From the IMG/VR virus record IMGVR_UViG_3300045988_119718, positions 64,001-128,000 of that record: DNA of 64,000 nt; one strand, written 5' to 3'. The notes under the pieces are model-generated. The model had not been told where the DNA came from. It saw only the letters and a program-made list of their open reading frames with translations, and did not search any database. The DNA comes from a virus. A program made the position numbers and the translations under genes. Of this stretch, positions 7,329-60,506 are shown piece by piece (positions within the stretch are counted from its first letter, which is position 1; every line of letters begins with the position of its first letter).

Positions 7329-9501
7329 AGCCTTTATAGCGTTGTACATTAGGAGGTGTAAAACTATCAAATGCTTTCATTAATTGATACAGTGATACTT
7401 TCTGGTCATTGAGAATATATCCATTAATGTCAGAATTGACAATGTATTTAGAAATTCTTTCATGACAATCTTTAAGCATATTCTGATTAAATACTGCCAT
7501 TTGAATTTCATCACCAACTAATCCATCAAGTACTAAAATATTATTCTTATTATCTACTTGAATGTACTTATTTACTTTAGCTACAACTTTCTTAATTTGA
7601 TTATACTTGTACCCATTAAGAATCATGCTATATACCAGCTCTAACAGATTTGGCTCAATAGCATAGTTCTGAGAGATAATACTCATATCAATCAAATAGT
7701 TGATATTATTGCAGAGAAGATCCACTACTTGAGTATCACTCATTTTCTTACCGGTAGAACTCTTAACGGTATTATACTTAATGAATCTTCTATATACATA
7801 CTGTACATATTCTCTCTTATCTGTAAAATAAGTAAGACTACCATTCTTATTCTTAATAGAATACAATGGTGGTACAGCCGCATATACTCTACCAGCTTCT
7901 ACAAGTGGTCTATAATAAATCAAAAACATTTTTAACAGTAAACTTCTGATATGCAAGCCATCTACATCTGCATCTCCTAAGAATATAATCTTATCGAATT
8001 TGCATTTATTAGGATCACATCTTCTACCTTCTCCACAATCAAGAATTGTATAAATAGCTTTGCATTCTTCATTCTTAAAGAAGTCTGCTTTAGAACAAGT
8101 CATAGCATTCTTTACTTTACCTCTAAGAGGCATTAAACCCTGCTTAGTAGGATCACATGCTTCACGACAAGTACTCATAGCAGAATCCCCTTCTACCAGA
8201 ATCAATTCAAGATTAGTTCTTCCAGAAGGTTTTTGATATTTAGAAGGTAATCCAGTCAATGTAGATACATTGCTTTTAAGCATTACTATCTTTTCTTTAT
8301 TTGTTTTTAAACGCAGATTGCCAACAGATTTGAAGAAATTACATAGACGCTGTAATTCATTTGAATGTGATTTGCACCATTGGTCTAGACCTACAGTCAC
8401 AAGTTCTTTAATAAATGGAATTGAATCCGTATTACTAAAGATTTCTTTAGCCTGTCCTGAAAACATTGGTTCAATATGCATAATTGCTACCGCTGCTTTA
8501 AGACCAGCTTTAATATCATTATTGATGATTGTCAAATTAGTTTTCTTATTAAGAAAAATCTTATTCATATAATTTCTAAAATAAGTACATAATGCATCAA
8601 TAAATGCTTGTGAGTGTGCAGAGTCTGCACTAATAGTCGGACACATATTAGCAAATGAATAAACAACTTCTTGTTCATCAATACCATTAGCATCATACGT
8701 GAAGGCAATATCAGCTTTCATTCTATCATTACCACCACTAAATGTAATTGGTGGAATAAGTGCTTGATATTTGTCTTTCAGTAAAAAGGTTGAGATACCA
8801 ATCTCGTTTACATACCTTTCATTAAAAACATTTTTACCACTTCTAATACCATGAAAATTAATTACAGCTCCAATTTTCATTAATGGCAATAGAGTACTAA
8901 TAAGAGCATTTACATCTTCACAAGAAGTTGTAATAGTTCCCATAATAGTTGTATCAGGAATAAATGAAACTCTAGTACCCTGCCAGTTATCTGTATTAGG
9001 GCATTTCTTTGGTTCTTTTAATATTGGTTTACCTTCTCTAAATTCAATATATCTACCTTCTGGTTTACCAGTAGGAGAGTACTGAGCACATAAATAAGAT
9101 ACACCAATAAATACTGAAGATAATGCGTTAGTAGCTTTACTACCTACACCATGTCTACCTGAACTGAATTCACCTTTCTTCTTTTTATAGTTAGATGATG
9201 TATGTTCAGAAGAAAAGATTCTTATCATATCTTTAAATGGTAAACCTCTACCATTATCCACACATGTAAATTCTTTACTATCTTCATTATAGGTAATCCA
9301 AATTTCTGTAGCTGGAGATTCCTGTTTCTCTACTTCATCCATAGAGTTCTGTAGAATCTCTCGTATCATATTGATATGACCACGATTACCTAGATAGCCA
9401 ATAAACTGAGTTGGAGTTCTTCTAACTGCATCAGAGAAATTACTTAAAGTTTTAATTTCATTGCCATATTCATTAATGGCTTTTTTAAAGTCAATACTCA
9501 A
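7329..9501 (-). CDS. type II topoisomerase large (GyrB-like) subunit, exon 1 (ATPase + Toprim)
   Basis: GHKL ATPase motifs ILQNSMDE and HGVGSKATNALSS. Toprim LILVEGDSAM. FLGDADVDGLHIRSLLL resembles GyrB PDADVDGSHIRTLLL. Ends ...VQRYKGL followed by VNEA-stop, which is read from the intron. Confidence 0.8.
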
Positions 9502-9578
9502 TTCTATCTCCTCCTTTACTCAATAGTTTTCTTACATTCAAAAAATAATTTAAAGTAATTTTTGTATGCTTATAAAAC

Positions 9579-9604
9579 AAGAGTAGGATTTAAATCCTAC
9601 TCTT
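9579..9604. terminator. stem-loop AAGAGTAGGATT-TAA-ATCCTACTCTT
   Basis: 11-bp perfect stem between genes. Confidence 0.55.
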
Positions 9605-9641
9605 ATCTATAAGCTAGCTTTAAATTATTTTATTTTATTTA

Positions 9642-10616
9642 TTAAGCTTCAAATTTAACTGGCTGAGTGCCTACATTAACATTGGTTGTATTTGTAGGGC
9701 CATTGTTTGCAGCTGGTGCAGTGGTTGGCTGTACAGCTACTCCGCTACCAATCGGGTTAGCTGCTGCGGAATAAGCTGGAGCTGCCTGCTGAACTGCTGG
9801 ATTATATCCCTGCTGCTGGAAGGACTGAACAGGTGGCTGCTGATACTGAATCTGTCCCTGAGCCTGAGTTGGCTGAGGATAGCCATAAGCTGGAGCCTGA
9901 GTCATACCTGGAATACCCTGCATACCACCCTGCGGATACATCGGCTGATTCTGCTGCATCTGAGGATTCATTACAGGAGTTGGCTGCTGGAATCCCTGAT
10001 TGTAATATGGCTGTGCCTGATAACCGCCCATATTATAACCATAACCACCATTATCAAATCCTGGAATACCTGCACCAGCGGTAAGATTCATATAAGTGCT
10101 CGACGGAGCATAGTAATTGTTTCCATAGAATTCATTACCCTGCGGCATAGCGGACTTCATATAATTACCGGCTACTCTAAACATATGCGGAAGCTGTTTA
10201 ATAATATTGATTACTGGATAAACACCTGCAAGTTCTGGAGTTGCCTGACCATAATAAGTCTTAATAGACTGAAGTACATCATTAACTTTTTCGCAAGCAG
10301 TATCTACTGCCTGAGTTTCTTCCGGATCTACAAGTGTAAATTCTTCACCACAGATATCACATTTAAATCTACCATCACCGATTGGATGTGCAGTAATCTG
10401 ACCTTTCTGTTTATGGGTGCAGATTGCTCTTAGATTTTCTTCATCGGTTGGAGCTTTAAAGAAATATGTAGATGGCTGACCACCTTTCTGACGAAGGCGT
10501 GCAATCTGTTCATCATTAAGCAGATTGTTCATTTCCATTACTGGCTGCTGCATTGGCTGCATCGGGTTATTAATAGCACCGAATGCTGGATTAAATCCGT
10601 TGTTGAACTGGTTCAT
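9642..10616 (-). CDS. zinc-ribbon protein with a long Q/N/Y/G/P-rich low-complexity (prion-like) C-terminal region
   Basis: CTHKQKG...FKCDICGEE zinc ribbon. The last about 200 aa are QPYYNQGFQQP / PQGGMQGIPG repeats. Locally GC-elevated. Terminator hairpin at 9579-9604. Confidence 0.55.
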   Translation of the reverse strand: MNQFNNGFNPAFGAINNPMQPMQQPVMEMNNLLNDEQIARLRQKGGQPSTYFFKAPTDEENLRAICTHKQKGQITAHPIGDGRFKCDICGEEFTLVDPEETQAVDTACEKVNDVLQSIKTYYGQATPELAGVYPVINIIKQLPHMFRVAGNYMKSAMPQGNEFYGNNYYAPSSTYMNLTAGAGIPGFDNGGYGYNMGGYQAQPYYNQGFQQPTPVMNPQMQQNQPMYPQGGMQGIPGMTQAPAYGYPQPTQAQGQIQYQQPPVQSFQQQGYNPAVQQAAPAYSAAANPIGSGVAVQPTTAPAANNGPTNTTNVNVGTQPVKFEA

Positions 10617-10726: not shown

Positions 10727-11221
10727 TTATTTGTACGGGTATTGCTGTCTATCATTATAGTTAGAATCTCTAGATGCGTTAGTGTTATTAATGTAGTTAT
10801 TAATAATTAATGCTTTCAATCTATCATCAAGTTCTTTCTTTTCTCCATCATGATAGTTATATGCTTTAAATGAACTAAAGTTATTAAGCAGTTTTCTAAT
10901 AGCTTCTTCATTCAGGCACATTTTAATTTCCTGAATTTCGCCATAATCAAATGCGGAAATGCAAGCTGGTACATTTACTTTAGATCTACCAATCATAGAT
11001 GGTACAGTATTTCTAAGCTGATTAAAATGGAAGTAATAGCAAATACCATTTTCATCATCCCAAAATAATTCTTGATTTCTTTCATCTACCCATGCATCAT
11101 TATCCAATTTAAGAATAATATTAATAGAGTATTCTTTTTTATCTTCAGAGCTAACCAGCTTGATAGATTTAAAAAGGTCTCTAATATGAATAACTGTTTC
11201 TTTTTCCATTTCGCACCTCAT
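10727..11221 (-). CDS. hypothetical protein (164 aa)
   Basis: ORF flanked by hairpins. Confidence 0.45.
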   Translation of the reverse strand: MRCEMEKETVIHIRDLFKSIKLVSSEDKKEYSINIILKLDNDAWVDERNQELFWDDENGICYYFHFNQLRNTVPSMIGRSKVNVPACISAFDYGEIQEIKMCLNEEAIRKLLNNFSSFKAYNYHDGEKKELDDRLKALIINNYINNTNASRDSNYNDRQQYPYK

Positions 11222-26776: not shown

Positions 26777-27326
26777 ATGACAACAACTTTAAAAGGAACT
26801 ATACGGGGGGGGGGTAACCTTTAGTGCCTCTCCAGCTATAATTATACCAAAAATACACTACTACATAGCTAAAGGCTCTAGCCCATGGTATAGTAGTTAC
26901 TGGAAGGATAAGAAATTAGTTACTAATGTAGATGAATCTGTATCTGGGCAAGCTACGGTTACATGCAACACTATAACAGATACGTACTATATGTTCTTTA
27001 ACCTCTCTAATCTTACTACAATAGATTTATCTAATTTCGATACATCTAAAGTAACTGTTATGGCTGATATGTTTGCTCTTTGCTCTAATCTTACTACAAT
27101 AGATTTATCTGGCTTTGATACTTCTAAAGTAACTAATATGAGTTTTATGTTCTATAACTGTTCTAACCTTACTACTATTAAAGGCACTATAGATATGACA
27201 AATTGTGTAAGTTATCACAATATGTTCGATGGTTGTACCAAGCTTAAAGATGTTAATATTATGAATCCACCGGCAAACTTTAATGATGCTAAATTGTCTC
27301 CTTCTCAATATACCATAGCATCATAG
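26777..27326 (+). CDS. phase-variable leader + DUF285 (BspA-like) domain protein; the ATG at 26777 is out of frame with the G10 tract in this sequence (OFF state), the DUF285 part is ORF 26991-27326
   Basis: ATG at 26777 gives MTTTLKGTIR. The G10 tract is at 26805-26814. With G9 or G12 the frame continues GGVTFSASPAIII...GQATVTCN...MFFNLSNLTTIDLSNFDTSKVTVMADMF... into the DUF285 repeats FxxCxxLTTIDLSxFDTSKVTNM. Confidence 0.6.
26805..26814 (+). repeat. homopolymeric G10 tract (putative slipped-strand phase-variation switch)
   Basis: Ten consecutive G in a genome of about 30% GC, placed at codons 10-13 of the leader. Confidence 0.8.
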
Positions 27327-31532: not shown

Positions 31533-33008
31533 GTGATAACTTTGAGTGAAAACAGCTATCTTATAACTCTTTTACAAAAAGAAAATCAAACTATAATAGC
31601 TTATGAATTGAATGATAAAGGAGAATATACTGGTGTAAGCCATACTGAATCATTCTTTGCTAAAGCTAATTCTAAATGGAAATTTACTGTAATACCCGAT
31701 AAATTTCATGAAGATTATTGGATTCATATTATACAATCTGATCATCAAACAATTATAGTTAGAGATAACGCAAGATTTCATGATTATAGAGCTGGTGTAT
31801 TAGTATCTTATCCAGATGATGATAAGCTTACTGGTATTCAAGCTGGTGATTTAAATAGTGGTATTTATCCAGAAACTAATTATGATGTTGCTGTAGAAGA
31901 ACCACATGATAGATATAAATACTTAGTAGTTAATCAAAATTGTAGAATCTTTGCTACATTAGCTAGAGATTTATACAATAATACTGATTATCATACAGTA
32001 ACTATTAAACAAGTTAAGCATCAAACTATAGTGCTTACTTATAGAAATAAAAAGTACTATTCTGATACTATAGTTGAAAATAATGAAGATTATACTGTAG
32101 AATTAATACCAGACCCTGGATATACTGCTACTTCATTAATTATTAATGGTAAAACTATAAATAGCTTAAAGTATACTGGTAAAGCTGCTGAAGATCTAAC
32201 TATAACAGCAGTACAATCACAAGCAGGTACAGATTCTAACTATTTAGAATTTATATTTAAAGAATTTGATTCTAGAATAGAAAGATTTAGTAATAGTGAT
32301 GGGAAATTATTAGTAGGTACTCTACAAGAGGTTACAACCATTATTAACCCAGATAAAAACATATGTGAAATTACTATTATACAGTCTGCTAATCAGACCA
32401 TCCATGTATATATACCATACAAAGGCGGTACTGACCACACATCTTCCTTTACTTGTCCGTTAGGTACAACCTATGAAGTAGAGGTTATAGCTGATAAGGG
32501 ATATATAGCTGGTACACCGAATACCAAGGTAGGAACAATTAATAGCAATATGTCTATTGATGCTAGCCCTGCTGTAAAGCCTCAAATATATATAGCTAAA
32601 GGTAGTAGTGGTGGATGGTATAATAAAGTAAACGAAACAATGGAGTGGAAGGATAAATCTCATGTAATTAAAGTAGATGAATCTATACCAGGACAAGCTA
32701 CAGTTATCTGTGATGGTAATATAACTAATATGAAGTATATGTTCTATGCATGTAACAACCTCACTTCAATAGACTTATCTAACTTTGATACATCTAATGT
32801 AACTAACATGGGCATGATGTTCTTTGGCTGTGATAATCTTACTACTATTAAAGGTGTATTCGATATGAAGTCTTGCACAAATTATGCCGGTATGTTTGCG
32901 ACATGTACTAAACTTACTAATGCTAAGATTAAAAATCCGCCAAAGGATACTGATTGGTGGAAAAATGCTGGATTTAACTCTACATCTCAGTTCACTATAG
33001 TATCATAA
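31533..33008 (+). CDS. Ig-like module protein with C-terminal DUF285 (BspA-like) domain (491 aa; the true start may be TTG at 31542)
   Basis: GY-x-A[GT] modules DPGYTATSL and DKGYIAGTP. C-terminal KGSSGGWY...VDESIPGQATVICDGNITNMKYMFYACNNLTSIDLSNFDTSNVTNMGMMF is paralogous to the 26777 gene. Confidence 0.65.
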   Translation: MITLSENSYLITLLQKENQTIIAYELNDKGEYTGVSHTESFFAKANSKWKFTVIPDKFHEDYWIHIIQSDHQTIIVRDNARFHDYRAGVLVSYPDDDKLTGIQAGDLNSGIYPETNYDVAVEEPHDRYKYLVVNQNCRIFATLARDLYNNTDYHTVTIKQVKHQTIVLTYRNKKYYSDTIVENNEDYTVELIPDPGYTATSLIINGKTINSLKYTGKAAEDLTITAVQSQAGTDSNYLEFIFKEFDSRIERFSNSDGKLLVGTLQEVTTIINPDKNICEITIIQSANQTIHVYIPYKGGTDHTSSFTCPLGTTYEVEVIADKGYIAGTPNTKVGTINSNMSIDASPAVKPQIYIAKGSSGGWYNKVNETMEWKDKSHVIKVDESIPGQATVICDGNITNMKYMFYACNNLTSIDLSNFDTSNVTNMGMMFFGCDNLTTIKGVFDMKSCTNYAGMFATCTKLTNAKIKNPPKDTDWWKNAGFNSTSQFTIVS

Positions 33009-53001: not shown

Positions 53002-53577
53002 ATGGCAACATCTCTTAGAAACGTTATTGAAAACTTCAAAATTAGCATGGACGAAATTGATAATCATCTTAATGCACAGGATGAATATATCAATGATCTG
53101 GCAAGGAAAGCTAAACAGGTTAGCTCTGCACTGAAACTGCTTAAAATTGCAGTAAGATCTAATGCAGATAAAATTGACGGATACTACTATGTGGATGAAA
53201 GGGATAAAGATGCATTTTTGAAAGATGATGATGTGTCTGGGCTTTATAATACCATAGCCGCTGAAGGAACGTATTCTATCATCATTCTTGATGATGAATC
53301 TCCATTGTTCCTTCAGGAGATTCCAGTCACGATTTCTCATGAGTACGATACGGCTAATGATGCTATGACGGCAAGAATTATCTCTTTCTATGCTGATGAA
53401 GAAGAGCATAACTACGTCAATAATACACTTGGCGAATACAAAGAAAACGCTTTCCCACCAATCGATGATACCATTATGATGTTTATCGAAGATACCAAAA
53501 AGAGAGCTAAAGAAATTGAAGATATTCGCAAAGCTACCAGTATTGAGAACCATCCTATTGGTAAAGAAGAAAAATAA
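53002..53577 (+). CDS. hypothetical acidic protein (191 aa)
   Basis: Strong RBS AAGGAGGAAATATACC-ATG, followed by terminator 53594-53631. The antisense ORF 52984-53607 is rejected. Confidence 0.5.
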   Translation: MATSLRNVIENFKISMDEIDNHLNAQDEYINDLARKAKQVSSALKLLKIAVRSNADKIDGYYYVDERDKDAFLKDDDVSGLYNTIAAEGTYSIIILDDESPLFLQEIPVTISHEYDTANDAMTARIISFYADEEEHNYVNNTLGEYKENAFPPIDDTIMMFIEDTKKRAKEIEDIRKATSIENHPIGKEEK

Positions 53578-53593
53578 CAAGGAAGGGTGAAAA

Positions 53594-53631
53594 TAAAAGG
53601 TACTCATATGAGTACCTTTTATTTTTTTTTT
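53594..53631 (+). terminator. rho-independent terminator
   Basis: AAAAGGTACTCATATGAGTACCTTTT followed by T11. Confidence 0.7.
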
Positions 53632-53850
53632 GCTATTTTCTATGATATTATAGTATATTGAGAAGAAGATAATCCAGCACCATTAAATCTTGATGGAGGA
53701 TTCTTAATCTTAACATTTTTAAGTTTATGGTATTAGTATTTAACCATTACCATCATGTATACAAAATTATCAAATCTTATAGATTATAATTAAGGTACTA
53801 CAGTAAGCTTAAGCTTACTGTAGTTTTTCAGAATTAGAATTAAAGAAAAA

Positions 53851-54630
53851 TTAATATTTTATCAATAAATAAACTCCATCATCAGGAATATTTGTATTAG
53901 GATAGTATATAGTAATAGTACCAGCTCCACATACGGTTTTTAATATTTTATAGTTATCTAAATCACAAGCTGCGGCTTTATCGGAAGAAGTAATGTCCTT
54001 ATCATCTGTATATACATAATGTGCTGTCGTACCTTCTATTACCCAATCAGCTTTATCTGTACCTGTTCTAATACTACTTCCGCCGCATAAAAGAATCATT
54101 AATGATTGCTCATCAATAGATGATGATGAACCAGCGTTTTTTAAATCATCTTTTGTAGCTAATTCGCTACCTTTATAAGTGATAGTCTCACCTTCACCCA
54201 TATCCAATAATGTCTTAGTACCACTCTCTGTTATAGAGTTTACCTGTAAACCACCATTCATAATGATTTTAGACTGATTGGTCTGTTCTCCATGAGTGAT
54301 TACGGTTTCATTGTTGACCACAGGATGATTAAAAGTTGTATCAGAGTTTACCTGTATTTCTTTTACGTTAAAATCTAAAGCACCATTGAATTCGGTATGT
54401 CCGTTAAATGTTACTTGACCATCGAACTCTGCTAAACCTTCAGCAAATACATTATTACCATTTAAAGTATTATCACCAATTAAGTTTACTTTCTTGTCTA
54501 ATTCAGCTTTAATTACTTTATTTTGTACAGCATTAAGGCTGGTATCAGATAAAGATTCATCTAATTGTGTTGTTGGAGAGGAGTAAATATTCCCCCCCCC
54601 CACAATAACTCCAGATATTGTTTGTGACAT
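53851..54630 (-). CDS. fibre-like protein (259 aa) carrying the conserved poly-G leader (G10 in frame, ON)
   Basis: MSQTISGVIVGGGNIYSSPTT, where GGG is encoded by the C10 tract at 54592-54601 (plus strand). The body is Gly/Asn/Thr-rich and beta-helix-like. Confidence 0.6.
   Translation of the reverse strand: MSQTISGVIVGGGNIYSSPTTQLDESLSDTSLNAVQNKVIKAELDKKVNLIGDNTLNGNNVFAEGLAEFDGQVTFNGHTEFNGALDFNVKEIQVNSDTTFNHPVVNNETVITHGEQTNQSKIIMNGGLQVNSITESGTKTLLDMGEGETITYKGSELATKDDLKNAGSSSSIDEQSLMILLCGGSSIRTGTDKADWVIEGTTAHYVYTDDKDITSSDKAAACDLDNYKILKTVCGAGTITIYYPNTNIPDDGVYLLIKY
54592..54601 (-). repeat. homopolymeric C10 (G10 on the coding strand) tract
   Basis: Seen directly. Confidence 0.8.
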
Positions 54631-54667
54631 AATATTTCCTCCTTATTAAAAATATATTATATACTAA

Positions 54668-54904
54668 TTATATAGAACAATCAATGAACACAGAAGAATC
54701 CATAATACTGCTTACATCAGAACTATCAAAAATAGCTAAATCTGTAGAACTTATATTAGAACTGTCACTAAATATAGAATCTGCATCAGTTATTTCGGAA
54801 GAATCAAGGTAAAATGGATATATAGAAGCAGTATCAGTTACATTATCATCACATAAAATTTGGCCTTTAAATACATTTACTCGAGGTTTTAAAGTTGGGT
54901 TCAT
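54668..54904 (-). CDS. small acidic Ser/Asp-rich protein (78 aa)
   Basis: ORF. Confidence 0.4.
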   Translation of the reverse strand: MNPTLKPRVNVFKGQILCDDNVTDTASIYPFYLDSSEITDADSIFSDSSNISSTDLAIFDSSDVSSIMDSSVFIDCSI

Positions 54905-54924
54905 AATTGATCTCTCCTATTTAC

Positions 54925-55356
54925 TTAATAATCAGTAACTGTTGGGGTATGAGTATTAATTTCAGGAGACCATGAAATTGTGAAACTGAGCCGATCGGCA
55001 CCATCTGCATTATACTCAGTCTCCCCGATCCAGTATACCAACTTATTTGTACCAGTAACTACGTTATACAAAACTGCATCCATATAGAATGATTCTTGTT
55101 CATCTTGCATTTTGTATTGCAATTCACCAGTAAGCCTATATTCACGGGAAGGTGTTACCCCCACGAAAGTGGTTTCATCAATTTCATTACCATAATAATC
55201 AATACCATACAACCTTGCTTTAACAACTTTTACATTTGGGAGGGGGTAAATACACCCATATGATTAAAATTAGTAGACCCAGTAGGTATACTTACAGTTG
55301 CTGGAGAGGCACTAAATACTACCCCCCCCCACTACTCCCTTAATCGTTGTTGCCAT
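54925..55356 (-). pseudogene. leader-family paralog P4, doubly frameshifted (G9 tract, interrupted GGGAGGGGG tract, C-terminal SPEIN..TDY module)
   Basis: RBS AGGAGGA + ATG at 55356: MATTIKGVVGGG, then a stop. The +1 frame continues VFSASPATVSIPTGSTNFNHMGV. The frame returns at CCCCCTCCC (55247-55255) to ...YGIDYYGNE...TISWSPEINTHTPTVTDY. Confidence 0.5.
55322..55330 (-). repeat. homopolymeric C9 tract (G9 on the coding strand)
   Basis: Seen directly. Confidence 0.8.
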
Positions 55357-55385
55357 AATAATATTCCTCCTATTATCTTCTATTA

Positions 55386-56750
55386 TTATTTAACACTTAA
55401 ATCACCTGGTAAGTATCCACTAGCAGCTACAACTTCTGCTTCGTAGGTAGTTCCTATTGGGCAGGTAAATGTGGACGTATGGTCTGTACCACCAGATTTT
55501 TGTGGAGTATAAACGTGAATAGTCTGGTTAGCAGACTGAACAATAGTTACAGTTGCTGTAGCTACTGTTGCTGCATTATGAGATACCGTAGTATTACCAT
55601 TTACAGTACCAGACTTTGCAGAACCTGGGTTATATCCACTATCAGCGGTATAGCTAATACTATAAGTAGTTCCGTAAGGAACACTTAAAGTTTGTGAACT
55701 CTTAGTAGCTGTTGTAGTATAAGACGGTAAGGTACCACCATATGAACTATTAGTTGCTAATCTAAGATTATAAGACTGATTTGCAGTAGCCGGAACAGTT
55801 AAAGTATAGTATCTTAATGAAGCACTAGCAGATTTAGCTGGGATAGATGTAGTATTTGTTACTGTACCACTTACTGAATTAGAAGCTGTATATGTATATG
55901 CATTTGTAGCACTATTAGCCGTATAAGCTACAGAGTACGTAGTACCATAATTTACGGTATAAGATGTAGCACTAGCAGTAGCTGCTTTAGCAACTCCATC
56001 TACAGTAGCTACATAAGTCTGGTTAGTAGTTGCTCCAAATGACAAGGTAAAGGTCTTAATAGCAGCAGCTGTAGCAGCTATAGTTACAGAATCAGTAATA
56101 GTACCACTAGTAGATGTTAATGTACCGGCATTATATCCAGTATCTGGAGTTATAGTAGCAGTCCATTTATCGCCATATGTAGCAGTAAATGTAGAAGTAT
56201 GTGCTACACCATTGCATGTTACAGTAATAGTCTGATGATCTGATTGATTAATATAAAATGTAAAAGTCTGTTTAGCAGCAGCGGTACAAGATAATGTAAA
56301 GCTACCAGCTTCAATATTAGCTTGAGTAATTCTATATGGGTTAGATACAGTAGTACCATTAATAGTTGGAGAAGATGCTTTATATCCTGTAGCTGGAGTA
56401 CAAGTAATAGTTAAAGCAGTATTCATTGGTAATAAAGTACCTGTAGATACAGCAGTACCAGAAGCATTAGTGACTCTAATAGTTTGGTTAGCTACTTGAG
56501 TAATATTCATAGCAGCTTGAGTCCATTTTAATATTGCATACTTAGTAGAAGAACCATTCTTCTGAATTCTAATACCAGAAGCATTATTAGCTGTAAGAGA
56601 AGTACCTAAACCAGCATATACATTAGCACCATCTACTTCTAAATTAATAGTAGAATATCCTGCACAGTCAGCTTTAGAAGTATATAAAGCACAAGTTCCT
56701 GAAGTACCATTTGTTTTCTGATAATGAAGAGATTTAGTTATCTTACTCAT
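55386..56750 (-). CDS. Ig-like repeat protein (454 aa), Thr/Ser/Ala-rich
   Basis: Repeated modules containing GYKAS, GYNAG, GYNPG and GYLPG. The C-terminal module is near-identical to the N-terminus of ORF 33041. Confidence 0.6.
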   Translation of the reverse strand: MSKITKSLHYQKTNGTSGTCALYTSKADCAGYSTINLEVDGANVYAGLGTSLTANNASGIRIQKNGSSTKYAILKWTQAAMNITQVANQTIRVTNASGTAVSTGTLLPMNTALTITCTPATGYKASSPTINGTTVSNPYRITQANIEAGSFTLSCTAAAKQTFTFYINQSDHQTITVTCNGVAHTSTFTATYGDKWTATITPDTGYNAGTLTSTSGTITDSVTIAATAAAIKTFTLSFGATTNQTYVATVDGVAKAATASATSYTVNYGTTYSVAYTANSATNAYTYTASNSVSGTVTNTTSIPAKSASASLRYYTLTVPATANQSYNLRLATNSSYGGTLPSYTTTATKSSQTLSVPYGTTYSISYTADSGYNPGSAKSGTVNGNTTVSHNAATVATATVTIVQSANQTIHVYTPQKSGGTDHTSTFTCPIGTTYEAEVVAASGYLPGDLSVK

Positions 56751-57003
56751 TTTCTATCCAAACCTTTCCACCATCTACATGGATAATAAATGAATCCTTT
56801 AGTTTAGATAAAGAATCCACTTGTGATTGTAATTTATTTATTTTTTCTGATAAATCAGTACTTTCTTTTTTAAGATGATCTATTTCATTATTCTTAGCAG
56901 CTAAGATATTATTAAGAGAATCTATCTCTAATGAAAGTTGATTATACTCAGATGAAGTATAACCACCTAATAAGTGTATTAAAAACTTAAACATAGTAAA
57001 CAC
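56743..57003 (-). CDS. coiled-coil protein (86 aa) ending in the fibre-tip motif GGKVWIE
   Basis: Heptad-like LKKESTDLSEKINKLQSQVDSLSKL. C-terminus ...HVDGGKVWIENE resembles NIPGGKIWIE of the two tail fibres. Confidence 0.45.
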   Translation of the reverse strand: MFTMFKFLIHLLGGYTSSEYNQLSLEIDSLNNILAAKNNEIDHLKKESTDLSEKINKLQSQVDSLSKLKDSFIIHVDGGKVWIENE

Positions 57004-57011
57004 CTCCTATG

Positions 57012-57275
57012 TTAGATTGACACACCATCAATCTTTTGGTTTTCAAACTTCTTGTATGCGTCAAGGTATACTTCTTTCTTATCTCCGTTGTATGTAACCT
57101 CGTAGTACATACCATCGGGCAAGGTAGTTGACACCAATGCTTTCCAATTCTGCAAGGTTTTACAGAACCAAACAACGTAAACATTATCTAACGTAATCTG
57201 TACGTTGTCTGTTTTATCAATATGCTTGTTAGCGTAGTTCAAAACAATTTCTTTTGCAATTTCCTGATAGTTCAT
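57012..57275 (-). CDS. hypothetical protein (87 aa)
   Basis: ORF. Confidence 0.4.
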   Translation of the reverse strand: MNYQEIAKEIVLNYANKHIDKTDNVQITLDNVYVVWFCKTLQNWKALVSTTLPDGMYYEVTYNGDKKEVYLDAYKKFENQKIDGVSI

Positions 57276-57295
57276 AAATTATTCTCCTTATCTTG

Positions 57296-57699
57296 TTAAT
57301 AATCTGTTATTGTAGGTGTTTTTTTGTTAATTTCTGGTGACCATGATATACGATAGGTAAAGCTATTAAATTCTCTAAGCGGTACTCCATGCACCATCCA
57401 ACTCATATTATCATGTGTGCTGCATTGCACGCCAAAAACCATTGTCTGCCCCTGTCCATGAAAAAAACTTTTGGGTTTATGATATGATCCAGGAGTAACC
57501 CCTATATAAACAGGGTCTAAAGTAAAGATGCCACCACTAACATCCATTGTTAGGCTTAATGCAAGTATGTGAACATTAGCTGGGATAACAAAATTAGGTA
57601 AATCACCTTCATAACTCCCAGTAGGTACACTCACGGTAGCAGGACTAGCACTAAACGTCGTCCCCCCCCCCAATTATACCTTTTAATGTTGTAGCCATA
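57296..57699 (-). CDS. leader-family paralog P3 (poly-G 10-11; the upstream ATG at 57699 is currently out of frame)
   Basis: ATG at 57699 gives MATTLKGII + G tract (57662-57672). Downstream frame GGGTTFSASPATVSVPTGSYEGD...YRISWSPEINKKTPTITDY. Confidence 0.55.
57662..57672 (-). repeat. homopolymeric C11 tract (G on the coding strand)
   Basis: Seen directly; the count is 10-11. Confidence 0.8.
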
Positions 57700-57719
57700 T
57701 ACAACTACCTTCTTTCTTT

Positions 57720-58105
57720 TTAATAATCAGTATCGTCTGGTGTGTGAGTATTAATTTCAGGAGAATAATATATAGTTACCCCTTCTATATCATTTTCATC
57801 ATTAACATCCTCAATTTTCCAACTAGTAATTTGATGTATATTATGGGTAAAACAATAAATACCATATACCATAGTATGATGAGGTGGTATATAATCTGTT
57901 TGAAGTCCCCATACATGTGTTGAGCCAGGGGTAACACCCACGTAAAATCCACGTACATAAAGTACCTTTATTCCATTTGGAACTGTAAATCTTTCTGAGC
58001 TATCTGGGCCTATATATATGCTTCCACTCGGTATACTTGCAGTTGCTGGGGTGACACTAATAGTTACCCCCCCCCCCATATAGTTCCTTTTAAAGATTGT
58101 GACAT
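57720..58105 (-). CDS. leader-family paralog P2 (poly-G 11; upstream-ATG frame hits TAA; an internal ATG just before the tract is in frame)
   Basis: RBS AAAGGAA + ATG at 58105 gives MSQSLKGTIW + G11 (58067-58077), then TAA. The in-frame ATG-GGG-GGG-GGG-GTA gives MGGGVTISVTPATASIPSGS...IYYSPEINTHTPDDTDY. Confidence 0.55.
58067..58077 (-). repeat. homopolymeric C11 tract (G on the coding strand)
   Basis: Seen directly. Confidence 0.8.
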
Positions 58106-58123
58106 AATATGATTCCTTTCTTT

Positions 58124-58544
58124 TTAATGATCAGTTACGGTAGGAGTTTGCTTATTTATTTCAGGAGAGTATTTTATATAAAATCTATCTATTTTGCAAT
58201 CTTCGCCTTCTCTGGTTTCAGCATTTACATAAGTATAGTATTTTTTATTTGGAATTACTCCAACGTATACTGTGTGACTAGTAATGCCTTCGCCAGTACT
58301 ATAGATCCATTGACCGCTACTACTATCTACGGTTAGAACTACAATATGTTCTGTACCACTACTAATATAGGCAGATGCATAAACTTCAATCACTTTTACA
58401 CCATTAGGAATTATAAAGTCATCATTAAGGCCGTTTTCATCATTAGATCTATCCACTAAATATCCAGTTGATACAACTATTTCAGTAGCGGGACTAGCTG
58501 TGAATGTTAGCCCCCCCGATTGTTCCCTTCATCGTTGTAGCCAT
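58124..58544 (-). CDS. leader-family paralog P1 (poly-G 7, OFF relative to the ATG at 58544)
   Basis: RBS AGGAGA + ATG at 58544: MATTMKGTIGG, then out of frame. The +1 frame reads LTFTASPATEIVVSTGYLVDRSNDENG...FYIKYSPEINKQTPTVTDH. G6 or G9 would restore the frame. Confidence 0.55.
58511..58517 (-). repeat. homopolymeric C7 tract (G on the coding strand)
   Basis: Seen directly. Confidence 0.75.
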
Positions 58545-58755: not shown

Positions 58756-59232
58756 CTACTTAGCAATCTTAGAAGCTGATTTCTCAGCTTCTGATTCTAT
58801 TTTTGATCTATTCATAATTACATATTCTTTATCATATTTACTTTGCTGCCATTTATGAACTAATTCATGACAAAGTATTTCTTTTTGTTTATTTATAGAT
58901 AATCCTGATTTATTAAGAAAAATCTTATTAGTATTCCATATTCCACATGCATATGAAGTTCTTACTAATCTATTAGCCATATCTTTAGAAAGTTTATTTT
59001 CTATTAATATTTCTCTATATTCTTTATCTGTATTGGAATAGTATACTTCTAAATCTTCAAATTTATAATTTAAACATGACTCAGTATTTGCAATACACCA
59101 TTCAAAAATAGCTTTATCTTGTGTATTAGCATTTATTAGATTATGAGCACTTATAGATATAAATTGCAAATTTAGTAGTAGAAATACTAATAAGATAATT
59201 CTAATAATTATAAATCTCATTATTCTATCCAA
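58756..59232 (-). CDS. signal-anchored HExxH zinc-metallopeptidase-like protein (158 aa)
   Basis: N-terminal hydrophobic anchor IIIRIILLVFLLLNL and HELVHKWQ motif. Start overlaps the stop of the tail-fibre gene (translational coupling). Confidence 0.5.
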   Translation of the reverse strand: MDRIMRFIIIRIILLVFLLLNLQFISISAHNLINANTQDKAIFEWCIANTESCLNYKFEDLEVYYSNTDKEYREILIENKLSKDMANRLVRTSYACGIWNTNKIFLNKSGLSINKQKEILCHELVHKWQQSKYDKEYVIMNRSKIESEAEKSASKIAK

Positions 59233-60506
59233 ATCTTACCACCAGGAATATTTAAAGTGGTAGTAGCAGTTACAGTAGCTGCACTAATTCCTGTGCAAGC
59301 AGTTGGTACACCATTAGTAAAGTATACAGGTTGAGTAGTGCTACCAGCATTAGAAGTTAATTTATTAGCAGCTGCTGCATTAGCAGTCTTACCTAAGTAA
59401 GTATTTGATGCGTCTGTTTTGGTTAAATATCCACTTAAGTCTAATTTCTGTGTTCCTAGCTGTTCCCATTTACTATTTACATAGATATATTCAGTATACA
59501 GGTTTTGAGTATCATTACCTGTCTTTTTCAAATAAATAGTAGTATCAGAAATATTAGTAGTTGGTAAATCATTTACTACAGCAATAGCAAATTTAGGAAT
59601 AGAAGAAATCTGAGCATTAACTTCACCCTTAGTATAGTAATTGCTTAAAGATTGATGGGAAGTAAGTGGAGTAATGCTATTAGCACCAAGAGTAATTACA
59701 CCATTAGCAATCTTAGCATCGGTAATACCATAACCAGATAATGTAGTAGGATTAGTACCAGCAGTTACATGCCCTTGAGCATTAACTGTTACAGATTTAT
59801 ATGTACCCGCAGTTACACCAGAATTAGGGTGAGTATATACTGTGTTAGTATCTGTACTTGAAATAGTAATTACACCATTAGCATCAGATGTAACTGTAGT
59901 AGCACCAGTACCTACAATCTTATGGGAATCTCTTACAGTGCAATTATCTAATACATTAAGGTATACATTGCCATTGCTAGCAATAGCATTAGATGTAGCG
60001 GAAGCAGTTGCACCTACTTTTAAACCAGTAGTATAATGGGTAAGATGAGCAGGAGGGGTATATCCTAAAGCACCAATTACATTATCCGCAGTAAGACTAA
60101 TAGTACCTGTATCTACAGTAATATTAGAGCCTACTTTAACACCACCCTTAGTAGTGGTGTTAGCATCAGGAAGAGAATATACTGTATCTGTAAATTTAGC
60201 ATTAGCTGGTACATTGCTTAATACAGTATGACCATTTACTGTACTAGCATTACCGCCATTAGCAGGTAGCGAAGTAGGAATAGCTACTGATACACTTTTA
60301 CTACCATCATAACTAGCTGTAGAACCACCAGTAAATGAAATAGCATTAGGATTTTTAAGTGAAGTAGGAGTTCCTTTTAAATCAGAGTAATTACCAGTTG
60401 TAGCTACTTTAGATAGTGAATCTTTGGTTGCATATTTGCTATCAGAATTAGTTACCAAACGCTTCAGTGTTTCTATAGTAGCAACAGGTTTAGATAATCT
60501 TGTCAT
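59220..60506 (-). CDS. tail fibre protein (428 aa)
   Basis: Gly/Thr/Asn-rich fibre repeats. C-terminus ...TLNIPGGKIWIE is identical to the ORF at 35840-37228. Confidence 0.6.
   Translation of the reverse strand: MTRLSKPVATIETLKRLVTNSDSKYATKDSLSKVATTGNYSDLKGTPTSLKNPNAISFTGGSTASYDGSKSVSVAIPTSLPANGGNASTVNGHTVLSNVPANAKFTDTVYSLPDANTTTKGGVKVGSNITVDTGTISLTADNVIGALGYTPPAHLTHYTTGLKVGATASATSNAIASNGNVYLNVLDNCTVRDSHKIVGTGATTVTSDANGVITISSTDTNTVYTHPNSGVTAGTYKSVTVNAQGHVTAGTNPTTLSGYGITDAKIANGVITLGANSITPLTSHQSLSNYYTKGEVNAQISSIPKFAIAVVNDLPTTNISDTTIYLKKTGNDTQNLYTEYIYVNSKWEQLGTQKLDLSGYLTKTDASNTYLGKTANAAAANKLTSNAGSTTQPVYFTNGVPTACTGISAATVTATTTLNIPGGKIWIE

Follow-up and report, generated by a model that had tools for sequence, protein, structure and literature searches.

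The sequence analyzed here, referred to as the window, is a stretch of 64,000 nucleotides (nt) of a viral genome (IMG/VR virus record IMGVR_UViG_3300045988_119718, positions 64,001 to 128,000; 64 kb, 30.2% GC). It is part of a ~253-kb uncultivated phage that, judged from its large terminase, is distantly related to the PBS1/AR9 and S6 jumbo phages. Six genes of the window, one on the plus strand (gene A) and five on the minus strand (F and P1 to P4), begin with a common leader in which consecutive glycines are encoded by a homopolymeric G run. These genes are probably poly-G contingency loci of this apparently PBS1/AR9-like jumbo phage, each consisting of a leader and one of several interchangeable modules, located in the fibre region and switched by reading frame (a reading to which we assign a probability of roughly 0.7). 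Slipped-strand phase variation had already been proposed in an initial annotation of the window, and the proposal is now backed by tract length polymorphism between copies of the same phage, by ON (in-frame) and OFF (out-of-frame) orthologues, by purifying selection and by codon usage, all of them read from assembly consensus sequences.

Poly-G tracts, reading frames and their variation

In a census of all G and C homopolymers of the window, runs of 4 nt were found 47 times and runs of 5 nt twice, none had a length of 6 or 8 nt, and the only six of at least 6 nt were runs of 7 to 11 G (G7-11), each on the coding strand of its own gene. The initial statement that such runs are otherwise absent from this sequence of ~30% GC was thereby corroborated. 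The heptamer GGGGGGG was matched 21 times (overlapping matches included), while 0.27 matches were expected from shuffles of the window. Runs of at least about 7 nt inside an open reading frame (ORF), over-represented with respect to base composition, are what is expected of contingency loci. In all six genes the tract was located at codons 10-13, 26-29 nt past an ATG with an upstream Shine-Dalgarno sequence. A codon count over the ORFs of the window showed that GGG represents 9% of the glycine codons, and the five other Gly-Gly-Gly tripeptides present in 50 ORFs were all written with GGT or GGC. Because GGG is rare and the other tripeptides are encoded without a G run, the run itself appears to be under selection.

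The alignment of the six leaders yielded the consensus M-[AST]-[TQ]-[TS]-[LIM]-[KS]-G-[TIV]-[IV]-x-G-G-G, followed after the tract by [VTL]-[TV]-[FI]-[ST]-[AV]-[ST]-P-A-T, from which only F deviates (N-I-Y-S-S-P-T-T). The six leaders form one family at the protein level, as had been claimed from the first inspection, and the five minus-strand leaders are related at the DNA level too. Frame analysis reproduced the states assigned initially: F is in frame, A, P1, P3 and P4 have one G too many, and P2 is one G short and runs into a TAA (Table 1). Products read in the wrong frame comprise 11-24 amino acids (aa), and in-frame products 128-259 aa with the exception of P4 (41 aa), so that tract length sets the frame and the out-of-frame lengths lead to an early stop. 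In P2, whose peptide spanning leader, glycines and arm reads TIWGGGVTISVTPATASIPSGSIYIGPDSSER, the in-frame internal ATG described initially was found to arise at the tract edge, in frame with the body. The start codon of P3 is located at 57698 rather than at 57699, where it had been placed.

Table 1. Coordinates of the switched genes, their poly-G tracts and associated features in the window, with tract lengths (number of G) in other assemblies of the same phage.
Feature	Position	Strand	Description	Tract position; length	State in window	In-frame lengths	L033	L034	L035	Other assemblies
Gene A	26777..27326	+	leader MTTTLKGTIRGGG; DUF285/BspA-type leucine-rich repeat (LRR) body	26805-26814; G10	OFF	9, 12				10 in the 252.7-kb ENA contig
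Gene F	53851..54630	-	leader MSQTISGVIVGGG; 259-aa fibre-like body	54592-54601; G10	ON	10	10 (ON)	11 (OFF)	11 by A>G (ON)
Gene P4	54925..55356	-	leader MATTIKGVVGGG; SPEIN..TDY module	55322-55330; G9	OFF	8, 11 (tract frame only)	8	9	9
Gene P3	57296..57698	-	leader MATTLKGIIGGG; SPEIN..TDY beta-sandwich module	57662-57671; G10	OFF	9, 12	9 (ON)	11 by A>G	10	L037, 9 (ON); L038, 10
Gene P2	57720..58105	-	leader MSQSLKGTIWGGG; SPEIN..TDY module	58067-58077; G11	OFF (TAA)	9, 12	10	11	10
Gene P1	58124..58544	-	leader MATTMKGTIGG; SPEIN..TDH module	58511-58517; G7	OFF	6, 9	7	7	7
P4 second frameshift site	55238..55250	-	TTTACCCCCTCCC; +1 nt needed besides the tract
428-aa fibre-like protein	59220..60506	-	heads the locus; ends PGGKIWIE; PHROGs in common with long fibre-like phage proteins; syntenic in all relatives
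DUF6275 gene	57012..57275	-	Pfam match, 1.5e-36; conserved locus marker
86-aa coiled-coil protein	56743..57003	-	ends GGKVWIENE; syntenic with 70-aa proteins of L001 and L005 ending GK(K/Q)VWVD
454-aa protein	55386..56750	-	N-terminal domain and about five Ig-like repeats
Perfect 26-nt palindrome	53798-53823		CTACAGTAAGCTTAAGCTTACTGTAG; directly downstream of the F stop codon

In order to compare tract lengths between copies of the same phage, the exact DUF6275 protein encoded next to P3 was looked up in public assemblies, which resulted in seven loci with 99.92-100% identity to the window. Four assemblies cover all five minus-strand tracts (the window itself, L033, L034 and L035), and two more (L037 and L038) add P3 only. 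All six indels detected across five pairwise comparisons lay inside poly-G tracts. The alignment of L033 with the window, for example, covered 16,990 bp without a mismatch, and its 3 gaps correspond to the tracts of P2, P3 and P4, while the A/T runs of 8-10 nt (n = 3) did not differ in length. Two genes change state among these near-identical genomes, as contingency loci would: L033 and L037 have an ON form of P3 where that of the window is OFF, and L034 has an OFF form of F where that of the window is ON. As a separate observation, the few same-phage substitutions include two in which an A bordering the 3' end of a tract is replaced by G (window positions 57661 and 54591), which makes the run longer and leaves the frame unchanged; this may represent growth of the tracts through substitution, or else come from base calling.

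The bodies of A, P1, P2 and P3 remain open for 110-180 codons despite the AT-rich genome. Ratios of non-synonymous to synonymous substitutions (dN/dS, pairwise Nei-Gojobori) between orthologues ranged from 0.17 to 0.56 at dS values up to ~1, and values of 0.35-0.56 were obtained for pairs with both copies OFF; gene A of the window and its counterpart in L007, both OFF, gave a dN/dS of 0.35 at a dS of 0.73. With dN/dS as the criterion, the switched genes behave as functional, window P4 being the exception: on these sequence comparisons, the other out-of-frame bodies are intact and under purifying selection. The initial annotation was right in that the tract of P4 is out of frame; in addition, the gene has a second frameshift at TTTACCCCCTCCC, and even with a G8 tract it yields no more than 41 aa. 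This second shift is present in all four assemblies, at a position where orthologues read FTPP(P/K)NVKV. Judged from its two frameshifts, P4 of the window is probably a pseudogene in this lineage. The second site is itself C-rich and may once have been a run.

Divergent relatives were retrieved through F and P orthologues, on contigs of 193, 239, 258 and 227 kb, one contig of 135 kb and a 231-kb IMG/VR contig. All of them keep the design, with 2-7 tracts of G9-13 per locus in mixed states. In one relative (L041) six P-type genes are OFF and F is ON (G9); in another (L049) two P genes are ON (G10 and G12), one is OFF, and F is OFF (G9); in a third (L045) three P genes are OFF (G13, G11 and G10) and F is ON. 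The tract of the P1 orthologues in L041 and L048 is G10. One cluster formed at 90% identity includes ..TIWGGGVTF (G12, ON), ..TIWGGVTI (G9, ON) and truncated OFF forms. P3 has an intact orthologue in the ON state (P0014, 92% identity), as has P4 (P0003), and P0002 represents an intact P4 body. Among the 70 matches obtained for F, ~30 cluster representatives are ON and start with MSQxISGVIVGGG, ~26 are OFF and were called from TTG, GTG or a later start, and in four the GGG is replaced by GEG or GDG, which interrupts the tract and locks it ON. In general, the small modules are usually OFF in the consensus and F is often ON. Gene callers split or truncate these poly-G genes, whose annotation in viral catalogues is therefore systematically wrong. 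Searches with the leader itself were less productive: a degenerate DNA pattern of the leader matched one IMG/VR contig, and a leader-only profile search returned just 11 short leader peptides.

Modules behind the leader and related switches

At least four kinds of module were found joined to the leader, in agreement with the claim that it is fused to differing C-terminal modules: the SPEIN..TDY beta-sandwich, a ~150-aa module ending in ..VTYxLL (L041, L043 and L049), DUF285/LRR bodies, and F fibres with varied heads. After repair of its frame, gene A matched Pfam DUF285 (PF03382; 1.2e-17, 64.2 bits against a cut-off of 25), as anticipated by the initial description of a DUF285/BspA-like domain, and also LRR_5 (PF13306; 29.2 bits against a cut-off of 27.7). 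P1 to P4 end in SPEIN-x-x-TP-x-x-TD[YH], the common ending attributed to them initially. Profile scans with P1 to P4 and F yielded no Pfam or PHROG match, sequence searches of the PDB with the 428-aa fibre, the F profile and the 454-aa protein yielded no match, and a search of BFVD returned nothing beyond uncharacterised family members. The SPEIN..TDY beta-sandwich and the F fibre represent two uncharacterised families without Pfam, PHROG or PDB relatives.

The P module family is large (436 matches at 90% clustering, 281 clusters at 50%). Most members are stand-alone proteins of 115-145 aa that start with MKSGTFT(S/N)NTSF(T/S)ASAA and have no G run; in larger proteins (258-703 aa) the module is the C-terminal end, and in three of those scanned it follows an InlB B-repeat/Flg_new or LRR_5 region. 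The AlphaFold2 model of the P3 body (predicted local distance difference test score, pLDDT, of 88) shows an eight-strand beta-sandwich starting near residue 19, with the conserved N-terminal arm GGGTTFSASPATVSVPTGS unstructured. The model of F is poor (pLDDT 64); it consists of a disordered N-terminus, a shaft rich in beta structure and, at the C-terminal end, a small domain predicted with confidence. F carries the widespread fibre motif S.NAVQNKVI, and its orthologues have several different shafts and heads. One of them, P0164, combines an F body with a P4-type leader (MATTIKGVVVGGGNIYSSP..); this hybrid, the sole case of leader swap found, suggests that leaders are exchanged by cassette recombination at or near the tract.

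A related switch was found in six smaller phage contigs (L001-L005 and L050; 33-54 kb, 44-50% GC), one of which was binned with Fusicatenibacter saccharivorans (Lachnospiraceae). In these contigs a homologue of the 454-aa protein, with Ig-like repeats, is joined to a P module via a single internal tract of G7-8 (at ~9500-10030; at 5609 in L050). The fusion is in frame in L005 (G7), where it comprises 260 aa, while L001, L003 and L004 (G8) stop after 139 aa and are OFF; L002 and L050, with G7 in another sequence context, need one more G. The internal switch of these phages thus selects between 139 aa and 260-286 aa with a P module, and is ON in one of the six. More P modules without G runs follow, and then holin and GH25-like lysin genes. 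From this fusion it follows that the jumbo-phage leader (..LKGTI-GGG) is the counterpart of the final strand in the repeat protein (..GTLNVNAGG). To judge from the two gene layouts, the jumbo phage gave each module its own start codon, unlike the internal tract of the smaller phages.

Tracts in a comparable position were also observed in an unrelated protein family. In three IMG/VR contigs of 36-40% GC, namely L016 (tract at 10958), L022 (10838 and 11340) and L025 (10959, 11467 and 11986), one to three tandem genes of 128-170 aa lie directly downstream of an F-like fibre gene and carry a G7-9 run at codons 5-8 (MPNYNGGG.., MSNKIITGGG.., MSDKILSGGG.., MTNHFGGG..); one of the six is in frame. 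This suggests the same design in a different protein family and, with it, that the design is recurrent.

Proposed mechanism, alternative explanations and known systems

Each of the six genes would act as an independent unit, with its own ribosome-binding site and ATG, about nine leader codons, a G run encoding two to four glycines, an arm of the type xTFSASPATxSxPTGS, and a C-terminal module. Slipped-strand mispairing during replication would add or remove a base in the G run; every third length would join the leader to the body, and the other two frames would stop 11-24 codons from the ATG. Each gene would thereby flip in a heritable and reversible manner, whatever the state of the others, and particles with different combinations of modules could be present in a single burst. 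The modules are most likely alternative distal or accessory fibre parts that would bind the host surface, and the leader and arm most likely form a common docking segment, an N-terminal adaptor placing them on a common site. These roles are suggested by the synteny with tail-fibre genes, by the domain architecture of the modules elsewhere and by the covalent fusion found in the smaller phages. A bolder version, which we consider possible but doubtful, is that the leader, the glycine hinge and the arm constitute a universal plug that docks unrelated modules at one fibre site, with the poly-G tract as the selector. If so, the OFF bias of the modules together with an ON F would mean that most particles carry the default fibre and rare ones display one extra module each; there would be a combinatorial, frame-coded host-range library in jumbo and small gut phages, which would have arisen independently in the family of L016, L022 and L025.

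Several observations weigh against the six genes being contingency loci. Among 25 genes that were not used for choosing a locus, 3 were ON, compared to the 8.3 expected at one in three (binomial P = 0.015), so the consensus leans OFF. Both P1, with its G7 tract, and P2 were OFF in all four assemblies, and may be rarely ON at the DNA level or expressed otherwise. The differences in tract length, moreover, lie between consensus sequences and could be partly technical. The first two points would be accommodated by RNA-level recoding, with the DNA tract fixed and usually out of frame, and with RNA polymerase (RNAP), of which this phage group possesses a multisubunit enzyme of its own, or the ribosome slipping on it to produce modules constitutively at a low, sub-stoichiometric level. 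The combination of an OFF-biased consensus with purifying selection even in OFF/OFF pairs points in this direction, as do the persistently OFF P1 and P2 and the split RNAP beta-like subunits encoded in the window. We nevertheless hold it unlikely, given that some genes and genomes would require a shift of +1 nt and others one of -1 nt (orthologues and the six smaller phages included), so that no single programmed frameshift fits, that no common RNA structure was found past the tracts (z-scores of 0, -3.75, -0.9, +1.2, +1.8 and -1.1), and that tract length differs in the DNA of copies of the same phage. Recoding is, besides, compatible with DNA-level switching and not exclusive of it. Slippage of the phage RNAP on the G run may supply part of the expression on top of DNA switching, which would help to explain both the OFF bias and the persistently OFF P1 and P2. 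Transcriptional slippage is best documented on A/T runs rather than on G runs. Programmed ribosomal frameshifting was rejected on account of the mixed shift direction and the lack of a shared RNA structure, neither of which agrees with a fixed slippery site.

A homopolymer artefact of sequencing or assembly, with true tracts that keep all genes in frame, has to be considered since long G runs are hard for short-read chemistry and for assemblers. Six of nine short contigs (L036, L037, L038, L042, L044 and L046) start within 17 nt of a poly-G tract, breaks that fit read-level length variants (a variant bubble) as well as poor coverage of G runs, and the two A>G calls at tract edges could belong here too. 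Such an artefact is very improbable all the same: Logan contigs, produced by a different assembler, were 100% identical to the matching ENA contigs, internal tract lengths included; most tracts are out of frame across many samples and studies, which would require the majority of reads to be wrong; ON forms occur at G9 and G12 with the matching GG and GGG proteins; and the length of the A/T runs of 8-10 nt does not vary. Exact length calls, besides, have no bearing on whether the tracts exist, where they lie and how they are conserved. That the out-of-frame genes are decaying paralogues, pseudogenes left by duplication in which the G run is a mere mutational weak point, would agree with the fixed second frameshift of window P4, with the P1 and P2 genes OFF in all four assemblies, and with one copy in L041 that reaches just 34 aa even when its tract is repaired. 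We find this scarcely credible in view of the open bodies of A, P1, P2 and P3, the dN/dS values (OFF/OFF pairs included), the intact ON orthologues, and the persistence of the tracts, at an unchanged codon position, in genomes that have diverged. Two other candidates were discarded. Reading of TAG as a sense codon fails because the wrong frames also meet TAA and other genes read well with the standard code, and inverted repeats that could point to an invertible segment, as in invertase-type switching, were not found.

Poly-G tracts are reportedly present in many phage genera. In the Campylobacter Fletchervirus phages, according to the summaries of Sorensen et al. 2021 (Cell Rep 35:109214) given in bioRxiv 10.1101/2025.10.21.683753 and in PMC10579305, tracts of G7-11 phase-vary receptor-binding proteins. 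Contingency loci of the six genes would resemble that system in having G7-11 runs inside phage genes, in the control of frame by tract length, in a host-recognition role (here proposed from the data above) and in the mixed population to be expected. The comparison with Campylobacter phages made in the initial annotation therefore stands for the mechanism and not for the sequences, as neither P0009 nor F had a tblastn match (E ≤ 1e-3) among the 50,697 deposited phage genomes, and megablast with the locus likewise returned no deposited phage genome. The nearest terminases are PBS1/AR9/S6-like (32-39%), indicating another phage lineage, and related modules occur in a Fusicatenibacter-binned contig. 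The organization also differs, with 2-7 tracts per locus at one fixed position of a shared leader and interchangeable modules that each have a start codon. As far as found, experimental demonstration of frame-switching poly-G tracts in phage host-recognition genes comes so far mainly from Campylobacter phages; the same logic is now seen in a jumbo phage that is uncultivated, unrelated to them and represented in several human metagenome data sets, in a stricter organization with one leader, one tract position and many exchangeable modules. The comparisons between assemblies, moreover, give an exceptionally clear indication that tract lengths do vary. The six tracts, the public assemblies and the intact ON and OFF orthologues provide testable targets for host-range hedging in gut phages.

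The contingency loci of bacteria (Campylobacter, Haemophilus, Neisseria and Helicobacter) share with the six genes a tract near the 5' end of the ORF, quick stops in the other frames, tracts over-represented with respect to base composition, and many independently switching genes of surface interaction. The difference is that the loci described here are borne by a virus with its own family-B polymerase, and that the switching unit is a leader common to unrelated modules. A/T-type contingency loci have been described in the coliphages T2 and T4 (Gomez, Barrick and Waters, bioRxiv 10.1101/2025.10.21.683753), by authors who found the simple sequence repeats (SSRs) of the coliphage genomes they analysed to be spread among genes of every class, with a significant deficit in the infection category, to which tail fibres belong; the same work mentions poly-G runs in the BPP-1 methylase gene and in a PB1-like baseplate gene. 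Phage-encoded SSRs of at least 6 nt, reversible frameshifts and bet-hedging are common to both cases, while in the window the tracts occur in one motif only and in no genes other than those of the fibre region. Such a concentration in fibre genes is worth attention precisely because coliphage SSRs are under-represented in the infection category.

Other phages also produce particles with alternative distal fibre parts from one genome, by inversion of the G segment in Mu and of the C segment in P1, or by the diversity-generating retroelement of the Bordetella phage BPP-1. In the six genes the choice would be made by frame and would be combinatorial rather than either/or, and no invertase or reverse transcriptase genes were identified among the ORFs scanned. 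C-terminal extensions, Ig-like or other, are reportedly added to structural proteins of phages by programmed ribosomal frameshifting, as in the Listeria phages A118 and PSA. The smaller phages (L001-L005 and L050) are similar in that a short or a C-terminally extended form depends on a change of frame at a defined site, but they need -1 nt, +1 nt or no change among close relatives. This varying direction fits a length-variable DNA tract and not a fixed recoding signal.

Genome and gene neighbourhood

The window encodes split RNAP beta-like subunits (recognized by PHROG matches), topoisomerase II, DnaB-like and Dda-like helicases, a family-B DNA polymerase and the large terminase; a tRNA scan detected no tRNA genes in it. 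The best deposited matches of the terminase are the Bacillus jumbo phages Goe21, BpSp, PBS1 and AR9 and the Staphylococcus phage S6, with 32-39% identity. The same phage is present on a 252,690-bp ENA contig and on shorter contigs of other samples, including human samples of the Fiji cohort (BRIT16-1 SAMN0233...).

The minus-strand locus is headed by the 428-aa fibre-like protein, followed by an M78-like protein of 158 aa, a 58-aa membrane protein, P1, P2, P3, DUF6275, the 86-aa coiled-coil protein, the 454-aa Ig-like-repeat protein, P4, a 78-aa ORF and F. The five minus-strand genes with the leader, described at first as consecutive, are thus interleaved with the 78-aa ORF, the 454-aa repeat protein, the 86-aa protein and the DUF6275 gene. 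The 428-aa fibre and the 86-aa protein have the same type of C-terminal motif. Sequence searches with the 454-aa protein, including the PDB search mentioned above, gave no Pfam, PHROG or PDB match; this protein is a candidate scaffold for the modules.

Gene A is flanked on one side by a 1532-aa protein with a CBM_5_12 motif and on the other by a block of four genes, which encode a 1205-aa protein, a 491-aa DUF285 protein, a T4 gp36-like fibre protein and a 462-aa protein with tail-fibre PHROG matches. The 491-aa DUF285/LRR protein (31533-33008) shares the fibre block of gene A and lacks a poly-G leader, and LRR modules are therefore both switched and unswitched within one genome.

At the other end of the minus-strand locus, the 26-nt palindrome behind F looks like a terminator that would mark the end of a minus-strand fibre operon. 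A second perfect palindrome, of 36 nt (AAAATAAAAGGTACTCAT/ATGAGTACCTTTTATTTT, 53590-53625), lies directly behind a 191-aa ORF on the plus strand (53002-53577), between this ORF and F.

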